Virus record (IMG/VR): IMGVR_UViG_3300028048_000002
Span: 98,818-162,817 of that record
DNA length: 64,000 nt
Source of the DNA: a virus
Lineage: Duplodnaviria > Caudoviricetes
Direction: 5' to 3' (one strand)
Numbering within the stretch: position 1 is the first letter of the stretch; every line of letters begins with the position of its first letter. The notes under the pieces are model-generated. The model was not told the DNA's origin. It saw nothing but the letters and a program-made list of their open reading frames with translations, and made no database searches. Made by a program: the position numbers and the translations under genes. This document shows positions 25,486 to 31,012 of this stretch, piece after piece.

Positions 25486-25941
25486 TTAAAATTCTTTTCT
25501 CCAAGTTACATAAGAACTTGCAGTTTCTCTAAGTTTTGTTTCTTTCAAATGAACATCTGAATAATTAGATTCAATAAAAGAATCAACTACCTGAGAAATA
25601 TGCTTTAAGATATTTTCTACAGACACAGAACCTCGTATTGGGTAACAACTTACATTACATGCGTTAAAGGCTGTAGTAACTAAAACTTGTTTTTGATCAT
25701 TTACATCGTATAAAAATTGACCCTCAGGAGAAGCTTCCTTTAAAATTTTCTTAAAAATTTTGAAATCAATCAATTTATTTGAAGTATTATCAGGAAGACC
25801 TTGAACAGTAGCTTCGAGTTTATACTGATATGCATTTAATCTATATTTCTCAGATCCAGTATTATCTATATATTTATCTAAGTAACAGCAAGAAAACTCA
25901 GTTCTTTGAGTTACTTCTAAGGCAGCATCAGATTTTTGCAT
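25486..25941 (-). CDS. QueD/PTPS-like T-fold protein lacking the Zn-binding His residues
   Basis: EF....L, Y.LEATVQG, IDFK.FK, SVENI...I and LRET.SSY match the QueD scaffold; AAH and LHGH are replaced by CCY and LNAY. Confidence 0.55.
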   Translation of the reverse strand: MQKSDAALEVTQRTEFSCCYLDKYIDNTGSEKYRLNAYQYKLEATVQGLPDNTSNKLIDFKIFKKILKEASPEGQFLYDVNDQKQVLVTTAFNACNVSCYPIRGSVSVENILKHISQVVDSFIESNYSDVHLKETKLRETASSYVTWRKEF

Positions 25942-25979
25942 TTATATCTCCTAAATCATTACACAAAAAGATGCTAGAG

Positions 25980-26061
25980 TCCGGGTGGAGGGATTCGAAC
26001 CCTCATGCTCAAAGAGCGGCAGATTTTGAGTCTGCGATGTATGCCGTTCCATCACACCCGG
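25980..26061 (-). tRNA. tRNA-Leu(CAA), CCA not encoded
   Basis: CCGGGUG/CACCCGG acceptor, GCAGA-CUCAAAA-UCUGC anticodon arm, long variable arm, GGUUCGAAUCC. Confidence 0.93.
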
Positions 26062-26082
26062 ATTCTAGCATCTCTTTAAATT

Positions 26083-26156
26083 TGGAGCAGATGACGAGAA
26101 TCGAACTCGCATCTAAAGCTTGGAAGGCTTCTATTCTACCATTGAACTACATCTGC
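26083..26156 (-). tRNA. tRNA-Gly(UCC)
   Basis: GCAGAUG/CAUCUGC acceptor, loop CUUCCAA, UUCGAUU T-loop, UCCA end. Confidence 0.95.
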
Positions 26157-26157
26157 T

Positions 26158-26233
26158 TGGTAGGGGATGAAAGAATCGAACTTTCAACATACGGGTTATG
26201 AGCCCGGTGTTCTAACCATTGAACTAATCCCCC
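26158..26233 (-). tRNA. tRNA with CAU anticodon (Met, initiator-like; Ile2 not excluded)
   Basis: Loop CUCAUAA, three consecutive G-C pairs in the anticodon stem, G1.U72, ACCA end. Confidence 0.88.
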
Positions 26234-26244
26234 TCTTATAATAT

Positions 26245-26324
26245 ATCACCTTTTGATTTAAACAAATACATTGCAGAAATTTATTTAAATCTTTAACGGA
26301 CTAGCAGAATTTACCGAGGGTGAT
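26245..26324 (-). ncRNA. Unrecognised three-way-junction RNA, copy A
   Basis: AUCACC-CU-CGG-UAA...AGU-CCG-UUAAA-[13 bp hairpin]-AAAA-GGUGAU; junction sequences identical to copy B at 28462-28530, with compensatory stem changes. Confidence 0.65.
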
Positions 26325-26372
26325 TATATCCGCTATGTAATATCTTAGTATATTATAACGATGCAAGATAGC

Positions 26373-26455
26373 TACTAAGGAAATACTTACGCTAGCAAAG
26401 CTGACTGAAAACAAAATTAATCTATCTGATGCAACTAGCGTATCATCACTTAGTA
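26373..26455 (-). ncRNA. Y-RNA-like scaffold, copy 1
   Basis: UACUAAG-UGAUGA-UACGCUAG-UUGCAUC-[variable]-CUAGCGUA-AGUAUUUC-CUUAGUA; has its own upstream TCGTTA motif. Confidence 0.75.
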
Positions 26456-26524
26456 TTTATTATATTTTCAAGGTTAATCATATACGTATTAACGAATAGA
26501 TTATAAATTTATATAAATAAACTA

Positions 26525-26664
26525 GCTTGAGGAAACACTTAAATCAGCATTACAATAAGCGCTCTTCCAGACCTGAGCTAATGAGCACATTCATGCCTAT
26601 ACAGGATTCGAACCTGTGACCTCTCGATTTCCATTCGATGCAACTGATTTATCATCACTCAAAC
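26525..26664 (-). ncRNA. YrlA-like Y RNA (scaffold copy 2 with a circularly permuted tRNA domain)
   Basis: Starts about 15 nt after the Ro60 stop; same scaffold enclosing, in order, UCGA-AUGGAAA-UCGA, a T arm (ACAGG-UUCGAAU-CCUGU), a closed acceptor-like stem and a D arm (UA-GCUC-AGGUCUGGAA-GAGC). Confidence 0.85.
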
Positions 26665-26678
26665 AACTTATTTAATTA

Positions 26679-28154
26679 TCAATATACGTAATATCTTACT
26701 ATATCTAATAACGATTTTGTTTCATCCTCTTGAATTTCAATTATCTTAAACACAACATCTGTAAGTGCTGTGATATATGAAATATCAGATCGCGTTGAAA
26801 CAACTTGACTATGATAGTTTCCAAGGTCAAAGCTATAAATGTGAGAGGGTCCGTAGTTATCTACATATTTCCTCCATAAGCTGTTTGCAGACCTGCTACT
26901 ATCTGCGTAGTACGACCATCGACTACCATCCATAACTTGCATATCTGAAAACAAGAATACTCTGTCATAATGCTTATCTAACATATTGAATACTGTTGAA
27001 ATTTCAGTACCATATCCAAGACCCTCGTTTTTTGCAAGCATTGAAATTAACTTAAATTGATTGCCTGCTGTAAACGTATCTTTTTTCCACTTCTTAGCCT
27101 TCGTCCCAAATTTAATAAAATCAACATTAGACCTAAATCCAGAAACTAAGAATGCAGAAGCATAAACTGCACACAATTCTTTAATCGTCAAAGAACTGTT
27201 CTGGCTAAATCGAGAATCCATAGACCCGGAAACATCAAGGACTACAAGTGTATTCCCGTCAAGATACGGCATATTTCCTGTGGAAATCTCAAACGCTTCT
27301 GACAATGCTGTCTCAACATAGAGCCCAATTCCTTCTTGGTTAAGCGTCTTCCAAGCAGTGTAAATTTGAAGCGGCCAAACTAGTGATTTCTTGATTGCAG
27401 CCTCATTTATAATTTGAGGGACAAGGTTCTCTTTGATCCAAGAACTGGAAGCAAAAGAACATTTGCAGATATTACGAAGATTTCTGAGAAGTGCAAGATA
27501 CCCGAGCTTTTTCTCTTCAACCAAACGCTTCCATTCTGATTCTTTTTCTTCCACTGATTTCGCTGAAGAAATTTTTACTTCCCAAGTATCCGGAGTCTCT
27601 AAGGTTCCTTTCTGATATTGATCTATTGCATCAGATTTTGCATGAGTGATATTGATGATATCATGCATGTTATATTTATGATTTCGCATAGGATATTTGC
27701 CAATTTGATAGGCTGAGAGCGAACTGAGGTAATCCGCAACCCCTCGGATTAAAGCATGAGAACGCTTACCACCGAGATGATCTACAGCAGCAAATACTTC
27801 ACCTACACCATCAGGTCGATGAAAATACTTAGCATAAAAATTGCGCTTATCTTTCCACTGGACGCCATTGAGTATAGCGGCAGTAAGCTCAGAAATTGAA
27901 CGCATTCCAAGTTCATTACGTGCATATACAGCAGCTGTACCTATGAGCTCTGGAGAATATTTAGAAATCATTTGGTTAGTCAAATCTACAAACCTAGATT
28001 CTTGTTCCTCAGCTGACTCGTAGAATCGAGGTTGAAGAATTGAAGAAAAGATTGCGTTACTCCATTCATCCTCTAGATACTTTGAGTATGCTACTCCTCC
28101 CTCAAAAGTAGCAGTTTTCCGAACGTTGATGTTCTTTTCATTGAACTTGCTCAT
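26679..28154 (-). CDS. rsr: Ro60/TROVE domain ribonucleoprotein with vWA domain (likely start MSKFN at 28154)
   Basis: MSKFN...EGG.AY, FYES, YARNELGMRS, TWEVKIS, LGYLALLRNLRNI, vWA DVSGSM and FSDMQ. Confidence 0.93.
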   Translation of the reverse strand: MSKFNEKNINVRKTATFEGGVAYSKYLEDEWSNAIFSSILQPRFYESAEEQESRFVDLTNQMISKYSPELIGTAAVYARNELGMRSISELTAAILNGVQWKDKRNFYAKYFHRPDGVGEVFAAVDHLGGKRSHALIRGVADYLSSLSAYQIGKYPMRNHKYNMHDIINITHAKSDAIDQYQKGTLETPDTWEVKISSAKSVEEKESEWKRLVEEKKLGYLALLRNLRNICKCSFASSSWIKENLVPQIINEAAIKKSLVWPLQIYTAWKTLNQEGIGLYVETALSEAFEISTGNMPYLDGNTLVVLDVSGSMDSRFSQNSSLTIKELCAVYASAFLVSGFRSNVDFIKFGTKAKKWKKDTFTAGNQFKLISMLAKNEGLGYGTEISTVFNMLDKHYDRVFLFSDMQVMDGSRWSYYADSSRSANSLWRKYVDNYGPSHIYSFDLGNYHSQVVSTRSDISYITALTDVVFKIIEIQEDETKSLLDIVRYYVY

Positions 28155-28167
28155 TGCAATCACTCCT

Positions 28168-28232
28168 TACAAGGAAACTTATGTAGAAAGTAGCTTCTCC
28201 TATACGATGTAACTCTCTACTCATCACTTGCA
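28168..28232 (-). ncRNA. Y-RNA-like scaffold, copy 3, in the Ro60 5' UTR abutting the RBS
   Basis: UGCAAG-UGAUGA-GUAGAGAG-UUACAUC-[15 nt]-CUUUCUAC-AUAAGUUUC-CUUGUA, followed directly by AGGAG. Confidence 0.75.
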
Positions 28233-28238
28233 TCAATG

Positions 28239-28333
28239 GAAATTTAGATGCTGGAAATAACTTAATCAGATAAAGTAGCATAATTTCAAGTTATCTATGA
28301 AGTAACTGATCAATCATCACAGCATCTAATTTC
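28239..28333 (-). ncRNA. Y-RNA-like scaffold, copy 4
   Basis: UUAGAUGCUG-UGAUGA-UUGAUCAG-UUACUUC-[AUAA-CUUGAAA-UUAU hairpin]-CUGAUUAA-GUUAUUUC-CAGCAUCUAA. Confidence 0.75.
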
Positions 28334-28379
28334 TATATGTATATAATATAACGAACTTTAAATTTCGATATAAATCTAT

Positions 28380-28453
28380 TGGCTGCGCGACCAGGATTCG
28401 AACCTGGATAGCTGGAACCAAAATCCAGAGTCCTGCCGTTGGACGATCGCGCA
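28380..28453 (-). tRNA. tRNA-Gln(UUG)
   Basis: UGCGCGA/UCGCGCA acceptor, CUGGA-UUUUGGU-UCCAG, GCCA end. Confidence 0.95.
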
Positions 28454-28461
28454 GCATTATT

Positions 28462-28530
28462 TATGCCTTTTGCAATAGCTACCGAAGCAACTAAGCTTTA
28501 ACAGACTCTCCGAAGATTACTGAGGGCATA
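28462..28530 (-). ncRNA. Unrecognised three-way-junction RNA, copy B
   Basis: UAUGCC-CU-CAG-UAA-UC(UUCG)GAG-AGU-CUG-UUAAA-GC..(UUCG)..GC-AAAA-GGCAUA; two C(UUCG)G tetraloops indicate the minus strand. Confidence 0.7.
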
Positions 28531-28544
28531 TACTGAATAACTAT

Positions 28545-28618
28545 TGGAGCCGATAGCAGGAATCGAACCCGCATATACGCATTACAAGTGCGTTGTTCTA
28601 CCATTAAACTATATCGGC
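28545..28618 (-). tRNA. tRNA-Thr(UGU)
   Basis: GCCGAUA/UAUCGGC acceptor, ACGCA-CUUGUAA-UGCGU, CCA end. Confidence 0.95.
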
Positions 28619-28619
28619 C

Positions 28620-28708
28620 TGGCGGAGGATGTAGGATTCGAACCTACGGAGGCTATTAACCTCGACAGTTTTCAAGACTGCTTCCTTAGACCTCTCGGAC
28701 AATCCTCC
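28620..28708 (-). tRNA. tRNA-Ser(UGA)
   Basis: GGAGGAU/AUCCUCC acceptor, loop CUUGAAA, long variable arm, GCCA end. Confidence 0.95.
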
Positions 28709-28772
28709 ATATTAAAGAACTCCATGTATACTCCAAATCTATAATTAATACAGAAATAATCTGCTAACTATC

Positions 28773-28848
28773 TGGTGGATCCGGTGGGACTCGAACCCAC
28801 GGTCTCGAGATTAAAAGTCTCTTGCTTTTCCATCTAAGCTACGGATCC
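28773..28848 (-). tRNA. tRNA-Lys(UUU)
   Basis: GGAUCCG/CGGAUCC acceptor, loop CUUUUAA, ACCA end. Confidence 0.95.
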
Positions 28849-28851
28849 AAC

Positions 28852-28926
28852 TGGTGCCCCTTGTAGGACTCGAACTCACGGTCTTAGTATTAAAAGTCCT
28901 TTCTTTGCCAACTAAGCTACGGAGTC
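28852..28926 (-). pseudogene. Chimeric tRNA pseudogene: 5' Lys(UUU)-like body joined to the 3' end of an Arg-like tRNA
   Basis: 5' GACUCCG does not pair properly with 3' AAGGGGC-ACCA; T stem GUGAG/CCUAC is mismatched; anticodon stem degenerate. Confidence 0.75.
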
Positions 28927-28956
28927 TTTTCAACTATCTTATAAATATGTAACAAA

Positions 28957-29598
28957 TTACTTTTTCATCCAATTGTAAGTTCTACCTCGTCTAAATCCTT
29001 CAGGAATTTTATCGTTCTTATTTATCTTCTTATTCACATCCCCATTAGTTATCCAAATTGTTCCATATTGGGAATTTGAAGCATCTAAAGCTTTTAACGA
29101 ATTCAAACGATTTTCTTCTTTTTTAGTTTCTAATAATTTGTGCATATCTATACGTGGCTGCACATTTAAATTTTCAAGCTTTTTCAAAACATACTCAGCC
29201 TCATACTCAACAGCATAATCAATATTACGTATTTGTAAATTCTTAGGTAAATTTAAACGAAAAGATCTAACTGTACGTTTTTTATCATTATCAATCAGAT
29301 AACATATACCATCTAAATATGTACCAAAAAATTCAAAATCATCTAATTCATAAGAAACAGAAATTAACTTTGTGTTTAAATTACCTTGTTGCTTTTGACA
29401 ATAAATATAAAATTTTCCATTTTCTTTTACAGCATGTTTAACTTGAACTCTATATAATTTCTTATTAAATTCAAAAATTAAATCATAAGGAGAGCATTCT
29501 CCTAAAGGAAAACTTACATTGCAACCTAACTGCATTAAAGCCGTAGCAACTTGATACTCAATTATAGTTCCACGAATTTTAGGATGAAGATTTTTCAT
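28957..29598 (-). CDS. Free-standing PD-(D/E)XK homing endonuclease (group I intron-associated family) with C-terminal DNA-binding module
   Basis: G.I.E..V...L...G..VS.P.GE.SPYDLI.....KLYRVQVK; C-terminal NSQYGTIWITNG...IPEGFRRGR typical of phage homing endonucleases. Confidence 0.8.
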   Translation of the reverse strand: MKNLHPKIRGTIIEYQVATALMQLGCNVSFPLGECSPYDLIFEFNKKLYRVQVKHAVKENGKFYIYCQKQQGNLNTKLISVSYELDDFEFFGTYLDGICYLIDNDKKRTVRSFRLNLPKNLQIRNIDYAVEYEAEYVLKKLENLNVQPRIDMHKLLETKKEENRLNSLKALDASNSQYGTIWITNGDVNKKINKNDKIPEGFRRGRTYNWMKK

Positions 29599-29620
29599 AG
29601 TTTACTCCTTGATAGTAAAC

Positions 29621-29698
29621 AATACCTAAATGAGCTTGACAATCAAGGCATCATTATCTCAACTAGTAGCTAGCTAGTTGCTACCTCATTTAGATATT
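29621..29698 (-). promoter_or_regulatory. Structured leader upstream of the endonuclease gene
   Basis: Outer stem AUCUAAAUGAG/CUCAUUUAGGU encloses hairpins CAACUAG-CUAGCUA-CUAGUUG and CUUGA-UUG-UCAAG, about 10 nt before the AAGGAG RBS. Confidence 0.5.
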
Positions 29699-29734
29699 TT
29701 ATGATAAGTTGACACATTAGTCAACTTGATCAGC

Positions 29735-29809
29735 TGGTGCCCCTACGAAGAGTCGAACTCCGATTCTAGGTTTAGAGGACCTATGTCTTATCCATTAGAC
29801 GATAGGGGC
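29735..29809 (-). tRNA. tRNA-Arg(UCU) with atypical C33
   Basis: GCCCCUA/UAGGGGC acceptor, D-loop A20, UAGGU-CCUCUAA-ACCUA, ACCA end. Confidence 0.88.
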
Positions 29810-29812
29810 ATA

Positions 29813-29834
29813 TTATCCATTGAGCTAAAGGGGC
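29813..29834 (-). pseudogene. Orphan 5' fragment of an Arg-like tRNA
   Basis: GCCCCUU-UA-GCUC-AAUGGAUAA; its acceptor strand pairs 7/7 with AAGGGGC at the 3' end of the chimera at 28852. Confidence 0.7.
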
Positions 29835-29836
29835 AT

Positions 29837-29919
29837 ATCTTACTACTAGGTATTCTGTTTTCAAGCCATCTCTCAGAAACTTATGTTATTTACGTTATAT
29901 AACCACCTAGTAGTAAGAT
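29837..29919 (-). ncRNA. Structured element closed by a perfect 15 bp stem, between a TCGTTA motif and the first tRNA
   Basis: AUCUUACUACUAGGU/ACCUAGUAGUAAGAU enclosing a 53 nt interior. Confidence 0.45.
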
Positions 29920-29962
29920 TACTGTATATTATAACGATTCTTTAAAACTCTTTGTCACAATT

Positions 29963-30313
29963 TTATGAAGTAACTTTAAGTTCTCCGTATTTACAATACA
30001 TAACCGCACTATCTTCAATAGAAATTCCTAACATAGCACAATCGTTTTCCTTAAACCACTTACAATTTTTGCAAAGAACTACTCTCACTAAACCTAGCGG
30101 TAATGACTCCATATCACGTACAAGTCTCCGAACAAATTCTTGCGCATCATTATAACCCTCTGCATAATGTTTAGAAATTATTGAATTTAAACTATCAATA
30201 TCTATATAACGTTTTGATACAATGACACCATTATGATTTTTTTGTGCTATGATGTAATCCGGCCATTCATCAATATCCCAATTATCTCCTAAAAAACAAT
30301 TTGTACAAATCAT
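29963..30313 (-). CDS. Hypothetical protein with Cys motifs
   Basis: CxxC at the N-terminus and VVLCKNCKWF...YCKYGE, a phage small-protein motif. Confidence 0.55.
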   Translation of the reverse strand: MICTNCFLGDNWDIDEWPDYIIAQKNHNGVIVSKRYIDIDSLNSIISKHYAEGYNDAQEFVRRLVRDMESLPLGLVRVVLCKNCKWFKENDCAMLGISIEDSAVMYCKYGELKVTS

Positions 30314-31012
30314 CTAAACAAACCTATCAATATCAATTACAGTGGATAGTTTGATCTTAATTTTTTCAGGAGCATAACTTGATAGCTCTTGAATAACCTT
30401 CTGTCGATAACTTTTATCCCGAGTATTACCTGTTATATATCCTTGATTTTTCAAAGAACGGACAACTTGACACTCAGTAACTTCTCCTAAGCTAAACTCT
30501 AGATATAATTGAAGATCTCCAGACAATTGATTAAAGAAATTTTGAAGGATCTCAGATTCATAAGAATCCTCAAAATTAAAATCATCACCTAAGAAGTCAA
30601 ACCAACTAATTTCATCATCACCGGCTTCGAATCTTTCTGAAACTTCTTTGTGATATCGATCTTTATTTTTTGTAGGATCAATACAGATGCAATAAAAGCA
30701 ATTATAGGCAACCTTATAGATATATTTAGGATCAAATCTCTTCTTATCAGCTTCAATCTTACTTATATTTTTAGAAAGATACTGATTTATTGTTTCAATT
30801 CCCTCTTCCTCAATTGACCAAGGAGTTTTTACTTTATACCAAGCTAGCGTAATTTCATTATAGAATTGACAATACAAAGCTGCAATTTTAAAAGATTGCG
30901 GCAACCTCATCCATTTATTGTAAGTAAGAGGTTTTGAATAATTGATATATTCACGATATAATTTATACGTGTTAAAAAATTCTGAATTAGAATCTATGAT
31001 TATAGCTGACAT
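30314..31012 (-). CDS. Phage sigma-factor-like protein (ECF region 2-like)
   Basis: ALY..FY..I...EE..E...Y......FD..YIYKVAYN pattern; preceded by a host-type promoter and AAGGAGG RBS. Confidence 0.5.
   Translation of the reverse strand: MSAIIIDSNSEFFNTYKLYREYINYSKPLTYNKWMRLPQSFKIAALYCQFYNEITLAWYKVKTPWSIEEEGIETINQYLSKNISKIEADKKRFDPKYIYKVAYNCFYCICIDPTKNKDRYHKEVSERFEAGDDEISWFDFLGDDFNFEDSYESEILQNFFNQLSGDLQLYLEFSLGEVTECQVVRSLKNQGYITGNTRDKSYRQKVIQELSSYAPEKIKIKLSTVIDIDRFV

Follow-up and report, generated by a model that had tools for sequence, protein, structure and literature searches.

I-Ssp6803I is the PD-(D/E)XK enzyme of a group I intron in the tRNA-fMet gene of Synechocystis, and this intron sits in the anticodon-arm region of its tRNA gene. 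Insertion of another kind of homing endonuclease gene, the free-standing mobE of Aeromonas phage Aeh1, reportedly splits nrdA into 'genes in pieces', as Friedrich et al. are said to have described in 2007, and the split protein stays functional. I-Ssp6803I and enzymes closely homologous to it are, in general, cyanobacterial (PMC3384342). In bacteriophage T4, SegB, a free-standing enzyme whose gene follows tRNA-Arg in the tRNA cluster, cuts tRNA genes at their T-psi-C motif and drives inheritance of the tRNA region (PMC2330249, PMC2988022). When homing in T4 proceeds with limited homology, illegitimate junctions arise at microhomologies, with extensive degradation or resection (PMC2988022, citing Parker et al. 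1999), and illegitimate repair of this sort has been proposed as a route to ectopic sites (PMC2988022). Both the presence of endonuclease genes in the tRNA clusters of phages and illegitimate repair are known already. Here we describe a window of 64,000 nucleotides (nt), that is, bases 98818-162817 of a complete 162,817-bp IMG/VR virus record from an uncultured phage of metagenomic source, in which a free-standing gene of the I-Ssp6803I family stands between the two ends of a broken tRNA-Arg gene, probably as the product of an illegitimate homing event.

All the features of this locus lie on the minus strand of the window, in the order orphan 5' tRNA end, intact tRNA-Arg (hereafter Arg2), promoter-like site, leader, endonuclease open reading frame (ORF), a chimera of truncated tRNA-Lys (Lys') and tRNA-Arg, resident tRNA-Lys(UUU), and the genes for tRNA-Ser, tRNA-Thr and tRNA-Gln. 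They are packed closely, with only 3 nt between the orphan 5' end and Arg2, 30 nt between the endonuclease ORF and the chimera, and 3 nt between the chimera and the resident tRNA-Lys. The elements named in a preliminary description of this DNA, made from its letters alone, were all found where it had placed them by sequence reading and with ARAGORN, Rfam and Pfam. Like segB, which lies between tRNA-Arg and tRNA-Ile of the T4 cluster, the endonuclease gene is thus a free-standing one in a phage tRNA cluster, directly downstream of a tRNA-Arg gene.

What was the broken tRNA? The orphan 5' end, fragment A (GCCCCTTTAGCTCAATGGATAA, 29813-29834), consists of the acceptor 5' strand, the D-stem 5' strand and the D loop, and the orphan 3' end (28852-28865) consists of the T-stem 3' strand, the acceptor 3' strand and ACCA, both read from the sequence. 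Their acceptor strands, GCCCCTT and AAGGGGC, pair at 7/7 positions, as had been noticed before, and they differ at 7:66 from the acceptor pair GCCCCTA/TAGGGGC of Arg2, which has A:U there instead of U:A. Fragment A is the best match in the whole 163-kb genome to positions 1-21 of tRNA-Arg(UCU) on a related contig, L013 (20/21, E=5e-4), while it is only 17/22 identical to the neighbouring Arg2. The orphan 3' end together with the T loop is likewise the best match in the whole genome to the tRNA-Arg 3' end of another related contig, L037 (19/20, E=7e-4). Because the orphans are the best genome-wide matches of the relatives' Arg genes, the disrupted gene, Arg1, was a tRNA-Arg(UCU) of the type that is still whole in those relatives. 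The flank upstream of fragment A also aligns in part with that upstream of the L013 gene. The middle of the old tRNA is gone, in agreement with the preliminary description: nothing is left of the anticodon arm, and only half of the D arm and of the T arm, a loss of about 30 nt of Arg.

Can such halves still function, for example by being joined in trans or by splicing, or as decoy RNAs? The complementarity of the acceptor strands, still perfect at 7/7, speaks for such a role, but there is no anticodon arm and only half of the D and T arms to be joined, the 940 nt between the halves hold a complete tRNA and a protein gene, and no intron, group I intron or ribozyme family was detected in 25500-30500 (Rfam, E<=1), so that we regard functional halves as extremely improbable. 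The locus resembles the mobE case in that insertion of a free-standing homing endonuclease gene splits a gene in both, and differs from it in that the broken tRNA no longer works and another copy came in with the insert.

It had been predicted that relatives would carry an uninterrupted allele, in which the intact tRNA-Arg is directly followed by tRNA-Lys. Exactly this arrangement, tRNA-Arg(UCU), 2-3 nt and tRNA-Lys, was found in three related contigs (L013, L037 and L043), and the slot between Arg and Lys, occupied in the window, is uninterrupted in all of them. L013 is a 1,345-bp Logan contig with tRNA-Arg(UCU), 3 nt, Lys, Ser, Thr, a leader with an endonuclease gene, and Asn; the acceptor of its intact tRNA-Arg(UCU) is GCCCCCT...AGGGGGC, and its Ser and Thr genes are close to those of the window. 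Further relatives of the cluster were reached through homologues of the neighbouring TROVE protein. L037, with a TROVE protein 79% identical, starts within a tRNA that ends in GCAGGTTCGAGTCCTGCAAGGGGCGCCA; the order there is ...AAGGGGC-GCCA, 3 nt, then Lys, Ser, Ser, Thr, Asn, Gln and TROVE. L043 (TROVE 64% identical) begins in the anticodon loop of tRNA-Arg(UCU), which is followed by 2 nt, then Lys, Ser, Thr, Gln and TROVE. The counterpart of this tRNA-Lys in the window is the resident, intact tRNA-Lys(UUU) at 28773-28848 (ARAGORN; Rfam 70 bits), the original downstream neighbour of the disrupted Arg. It is to be noted that L037 and L043, which are independent metagenome contigs, both start inside tRNA-Arg(UCU), at about position 45 and in the anticodon loop, respectively; assemblies may break at this gene because populations are polymorphic there.

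The other side of the scar is the chimera of 75 nt at 28926-28852, in which, as the preliminary description recognized, the 5' three quarters of a tRNA-Lys is fused in the T loop to the orphan tRNA 3' end. Its first ~51 nt are tRNA-Lys(UUU)-like (Lys', 28876-28926), and its last 14-24 nt are the orphan T arm and acceptor 3' end, the 3' end reading GTTCGAGTCC-TAC-AAGGGGC-ACCA. ARAGORN and the tRNA model of Rfam (E<=1) both pass over the chimera without a tRNA call. From which tRNA-Lys does Lys' come? The resident tRNA-Lys and that of L043 differ at positions 2, 3, 16, 20, 43 and 52, and Lys' has the L043 state at 6/6 of them; it agrees with the L043 gene in every one of its first 24 nt and of the 19 nt that lead up to the junction. 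The five private changes of Lys' are clustered in the area of the D-stem and the anticodon-stem, as would be expected of a dead copy or of a donor variant. Lys' is therefore best read, by comparison with the L043 gene, as the 5' part of a foreign tRNA-Lys(UUU) allele cut off in the T loop, and because it carries a different allele from the resident tRNA-Lys, the block from Arg2 through the endonuclease gene to Lys' appears to be a piece of another genome, placed between about positions 22 and 52 of the old Arg. Within this block the endonuclease gene has a divergent Arg on one side and a different Lys allele on the other, which is the feature of co-conversion.

One may suppose instead that no foreign DNA came in, and that the phage's own Arg and Lys genes were duplicated in tandem, the fragments being what is left of the decayed copies. 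Fragment A does resemble the first 22 nt of the adjacent Arg (17/22), and Lys' is 84% identical to the resident tRNA-Lys. However, fragment A is closer to the tRNA-Arg(UCU) of L013 (20/21) than to its neighbour, its acceptor strand complements the distant orphan and not the neighbour, and Lys' follows the L043 allele wherever that allele and the resident one differ. Local duplication with decay is thus very improbable.

The preliminary description had further proposed that the block was joined by means of tRNA microhomology. For the right junction this holds: Lys' passes into the orphan at 28866-28875 through a T-loop sequence of 9-10 nt, GTTCGAGTC(C), which is common to both tRNAs when the chimera is compared with the L043 Lys gene and the L037 Arg 3' end. 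For the left junction, which reads …AATGGATAA-TAT-GCCCC…, no clear microhomology can be reconstructed. Since the DNA comes from a metagenome, these junctions could in principle have been made by an assembler joining two strains with different tRNA clusters, and the fact that the L037 and L043 contigs break in the same tRNA-Arg gene suggests strain heterogeneity at this place in other samples. Against such an artefact, a 70-kb Logan contig (run SRR8442993), that is, a second assembly from a different pipeline, is 100% identical to the window over 4,642 bp, every junction included. The repeats common to the tRNAs are only about 10 nt long, and the sequence shared at the junctions is 9-10 nt, far under the k-mer length of assemblers. 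The 162,817-bp record, moreover, is a complete genome with direct terminal repeats. A chimeric assembly is hardly credible under these circumstances.

The intact tRNA-Arg between the orphans, Arg2, lies at 29735-29809 and has the anticodon UCU (ARAGORN; Rfam tRNA model 57 bits). That it is intact but divergent, as previously claimed, was borne out by the ARAGORN call and by its identity of 59% to the tRNA-Arg(UCU) of L013. Its anticodon loop is CCUCUAA, with a non-canonical C33, where U33 is near-universal in tRNAs. Arg2 is 69% identical to a tRNA-Arg(CCU) of L041 (2984-3058), a relative in which this gene lies directly upstream of a GIY-YIG endonuclease gene; the loop of that tRNA is CUCCUAA, and the difference between the two anticodon loops is the dinucleotide 33-34. 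Arg2 could thus be a remoulded tRNA-Arg(CCU), whose anticodon would have changed to UCU after loss of the original tRNA-Arg(UCU). AGA makes up 51% of the Arg codons in long ORFs; therefore there would be a selective reason to retain a copy of tRNA-Arg(UCU), and the lineage would survive only with a substitute. As a hypothesis, Arg2 might also be the 'immune allele', spared by the endonuclease.

The endonuclease gene itself (28957-29598) is an intact ORF of 213 amino acids. Its assignment to the PD-(D/E)XK type, already made in the preliminary description, was confirmed by Pfam, where residues 5-134 match PF11645 (PDDEXK_5) with 62.2 bits against a cut-off of 26.1 (E=7e-17). The protein also matches I-Ssp6803I (PDB 2OST) directly at E=3.8e-6 in phmmer, and this alignment places SPYD(39)L...VQ(52)VK(54) on YDL...VQVK of I-Ssp6803I, so that the D...QVK core is aligned. 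From the superfamily we take D ... Q/E-x-K to be the catalytic residues. The enzyme therefore shares with I-Ssp6803I the Pfam family, direct sequence similarity and association with tRNA genes, and a pseudo-palindromic tRNA stem-loop would be a natural target for an oligomeric PD-(D/E)XK enzyme. It differs in three respects. The gene is not intron-encoded; it is free-standing, because no intron or ribozyme family was detected around it, and it is flanked by tRNA genes and equipped with a promoter-like site and a leader of its own. It belongs to a phage. And it has an extra C-terminal tail: the last ~45 amino acids match no Pfam family, and GIY-YIG (SegE-like, Seg-type), NUMOD3 and HNH endonucleases carry them at the C-terminus as well, a sharing that is the modular build typical of free-standing phage homing endonucleases. 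In the protein collection only one close homologue was found, with 55% identity, and it is encoded on L013.

This homologue stands in another place. On L013 the homologous cassette, with the same leader, occupies the slot between tRNA-Thr and tRNA-Asn, which is empty in L037 and in a further relative, L047. Since the L013 homologue holds a slot that is empty in these two, the same element occupies different slots of one tRNA cluster in different phages, and the cassette is mobile within the cluster. As for the previous home of the window cassette, derivation of the 3' flank of its endonuclease gene from a Thr-Asn spacer was considered, and the alignment was too weak to use. The slot between tRNA-Arg and TROVE is also occupied in relatives, by a GIY-YIG gene in L041 (3170-3826) and L044 (2143-2796), and by an HNH_3/NUMOD4 endonuclease gene in L045 (2270-2791); the TROVE proteins of these three contigs are 61-62% identical to that of the window. 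As judged from gene content, homing endonucleases with three different nuclease folds have this region as a hot spot.

Is proximity to tRNA genes peculiar to this phage cluster? Distant PDDEXK_5 homologues in cultured viruses, with 25-33% identity, adjoin tRNA genes in 6/6 virus lineages checked. The gene lies 138 nt before tRNA-Arg(UCG) in Enterococcus phage EFP01 (Schiekvirus; L031), between tRNA-Met and tRNA-Tyr in Escherichia phage 241 (Kuttervirus; L032), 20 nt after tRNA-Asn in Salmonella phage SM5 (Kuttervirus; L034), inside an array of 16 tRNAs in Pseudoalteromonas phage J2-1 (L033), about 450 nt after tRNA-His in a 484-kb uncultured phage (L035, LR756508), and 2 nt after tRNA-Asn in the archaeal halovirus HSTV-4 (L046). 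tRNA-Asn is the neighbour in four cases, namely SM5, J2-1, HSTV-4 and L013. In SM5 it stands exactly at the 5' border of the PDDEXK_5 gene and is absent in phage 241, where this border measures ~9 nt (L032 2496-2505) versus ~94 nt in SM5 (L034 2411-2507). The endonuclease genes of these two Kuttervirus phages are only 79% identical, while most of the flanking segments are 84-98% identical.

How, then, did the cassette come to split a tRNA gene? In our opinion the best explanation, and a probable one, is illegitimate, microhomology-primed acquisition of a homing endonuclease cassette from a divergent co-infecting donor, after a break in the resident Arg. The phage lineage would have started from tRNA-Arg(UCU), 3 nt and tRNA-Lys, and the donor would have been a related phage in which a divergent tRNA-Arg and the phage's own tRNA-Lys enclosed the cassette (its own promoter, structured leader and ORF). 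While both phages infected one cell, a double-strand break would be made in the resident tRNA-Arg, and its ends would be resected by ~30 nt in total. Because the genomes are too divergent for ordinary flanking homology, repair would then have copied the donor at short matches inside tRNA genes: on the right side the T loop of the resident Arg would anneal to that of the donor Lys at GTTCGAGTC, and on the left side the end in the Arg D loop would be joined just upstream of the donor Arg. The product would have the first 22 and the last ~14-24 nt of the old Arg as orphans, with the donor Arg, the endonuclease gene and the truncated donor Lys between them. To the observed anatomy of the locus, the empty allele of the relatives, the foreign insert and the tRNA association of the enzyme family, this explanation adds that the endonuclease itself most likely made the break. 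Candidate positions for the cut, by analogy with the two described enzymes, would be the anticodon arm, as for I-Ssp6803I and at the centre of the deleted segment, or the T arm, as for SegB and with the right junction located there.

The endonuclease may, on the other hand, have been a mere passenger, if two co-infecting relatives recombined illegitimately at short tRNA matches in the T loop and the D loop. tRNA clusters are rich in conserved motifs of 9-11 nt, the junctions lie in exactly such motifs, and the content of the cluster varies widely among relatives. But at the centre of the block is an intact nuclease gene, whose family adjoins tRNA genes in 6/6 lineages checked, different homing endonuclease families hold tRNA-adjacent slots in relatives, and repair stimulated by a double-strand break is a documented route to such junctions in phage (PMC2988022). 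We therefore think that recombination with a passive endonuclease gene is unlikely, though it deserves more weight than the alternatives discussed above.

Several points weigh against acquisition by homing as we propose it. The left junction shows no reconstructable microhomology, the donor sequence not being at hand. A donor genome with Arg2, the endonuclease gene and Lys was found neither among homologues in the protein collection nor by exact IMG/VR scans; such scans with fragment A, the orphan 3' end, the tRNA-Ser segment and the 24-nt 5' end of Lys' gave no match. The polarity of the event, that is, which flank is the resident one, rests on parsimony. On L013 the cassette sits cleanly between two tRNAs, neither of which is damaged, so insertion of this family need not cut inside a tRNA. 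Finally Arg2, with its C33 and its look of a remoulded tRNA-Arg(CCU), may be an imperfect substitute of poor function.

If the homing explanation is taken, the locus resembles in function SegB-type intronless homing combined with illegitimate repair, the enzyme being, by family, a PDDEXK_5 one with I-Ssp6803I. As with SegB, targets or junctions are in tRNA genes, SegB's own motif being the T-psi-C sequence GGTTCRANTCC (PMC2330249); the flanking tRNA alleles are co-inherited, and the ribosome-binding site is in a hairpin (PMC2330249, PMC2988022). Unlike SegB, which has the GIY-YIG fold and homes via long flanking homology without a broken tRNA, the window enzyme has the PD-(D/E)XK fold, and its repair would have been illegitimate, with a tRNA split. 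With illegitimate homing in T4 (PMC2988022) the locus shares junctions that lie at microhomologies, far-reaching resection and the invasion of a site where homology is limited; that system, however, was built in the laboratory around a group I intron, while here we see a natural scar, a free-standing gene and tRNA microhomologies.

Upstream of the endonuclease ORF there are elements that may serve its expression. A promoter-like site, TTGACT-17-TAAAAT, at 29696-29724 came from a consensus scan with 10/12 matches and is a consensus match only; L013 has TTGGTG-17-TATAAT at the homologous position. It is followed by a leader RNA predicted to fold into a three-way junction (29627-29692; z=-4.85) and by a hairpin at 29600-29620, given by the minimum-free-energy fold, which contains the ribosome-binding site AAGGAG; an equivalent hairpin is predicted in L013. 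The leader of ~66 nt comprises a variable, covarying P1, the motif GGTAGCRAC, a P2 hairpin, TTGAGATAATGATGCCTT forming P3, and then TCAAG. In a consensus structure from five sequences 97% of cells are paired, and eight pairs in two helices show compensatory changes. In addition to the window, copies are found in L013 (485-550) and in L018, L023, L024 and L026 (IMG/VR 3300045988 contigs). The leader stands before both PD-(D/E)XK genes; in three unrelated IMG/VR contigs it stands before HNH_3/NUMOD4 endonuclease genes and, in a fourth, before a 224-amino-acid ORF of no known family. The GIY-YIG genes of the relatives have a structured leader of their own, which is different. No Rfam family matches the leader, blastn against cultured phages gave no match, and matches of a leader 17-mer in prokaryote genomes were about as many as our estimate of chance expectation, none of them scoring as a leader. 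The leader may be a cis-regulatory or processing element that homing endonuclease genes have in common across nuclease families.

The tRNA cluster is headed by a perfect inverted repeat of 15 bp, ATCTTACTACTAGGT and ACCTAGTAGTAAGAT, at 29905-29919 and 29837-29851 of the minus strand, which encloses 53 nt and has a promoter-like TTGTGA...TATAAT on one side and fragment A on the other. The phage has a G+C content of 33%, and its eight tRNA genes form two groups around a TROVE/Ro60-like gene (ORF 26679-28163; Pfam E=8e-16), which stands on the minus strand in the middle of the cluster. Just downstream of this gene, at 26538-26650 on the same strand, is a match to the Rfam family YrlA (Y RNA-like), sub-threshold with 28.9 bits where the gathering score is 69. 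Related phage contigs very commonly have TROVE homologues, with 2,204 matches at E<=1e-20. A TROVE protein scan of IMG/VR gave no match. When cultured phages were searched at the DNA level with the 2-kb region, for near as well as distant similarity, generic tRNA matches alone came up, primase relatives (56-59% identity) have neither tRNAs nearby nor a TROVE gene, and no homologue of the upstream 116-amino-acid protein was found. Over 31 nt the phage tRNA-Ser(UGA) is identical to tRNA-Ser(UGA) genes of metagenome contigs (L027-L030) that also carry tRNA-Ser(GCT) and look bacterial, a possible clue to the host; the single metagenome scan with a tRNA-Ser segment gave only loci with tRNA-Ser(GCT) next to tRNA-Ser(UGA), probably bacterial, and the phage cluster was not among them.

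What does this locus tell about selfish nucleases and phage tRNAs? The arrival of homing endonucleases at new sites is ascribed to rare events of illegitimate repair, and to our knowledge natural products of such repair have seldom been caught with both the scar and the unbroken allele, which are both available here. In the literature searched, three things appear to be undescribed: a free-standing phage form of the PDDEXK_5 family, its consistent adjacency to tRNA genes in viruses of bacteria and archaea, and a natural split-tRNA scar with the empty allele at hand. A nuclease of the I-Ssp6803I type, mainly known before as an intron-encoded cyanobacterial enzyme, is here found in a tRNA cluster, and the relatives' Arg(UCU) gene and the imported Arg make a concrete pair of substrates for cleavage. 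Taking all together, one can tentatively imagine, though we would rather doubt than assert the whole of it, that PDDEXK_5 is a tRNA-gene-specific homing family across bacterial and archaeal viruses, of which I-Ssp6803I is no more than the intron-borne offshoot; that it drives exchange, loss and remoulding of tRNAs, here with an Arg(UCU) replaced by a gene derived from Arg(CCU); and that its expression is governed by a previously undescribed three-way-junction leader that HNH endonuclease genes of other phages have as well. The tRNA adjacency hints at a tie between this nuclease family and tRNA genes, in bacterial as well as archaeal viruses, and the scar in the tRNA-Arg gene would show one way in which large phages have their tRNA repertoires remodelled by selfish nucleases.

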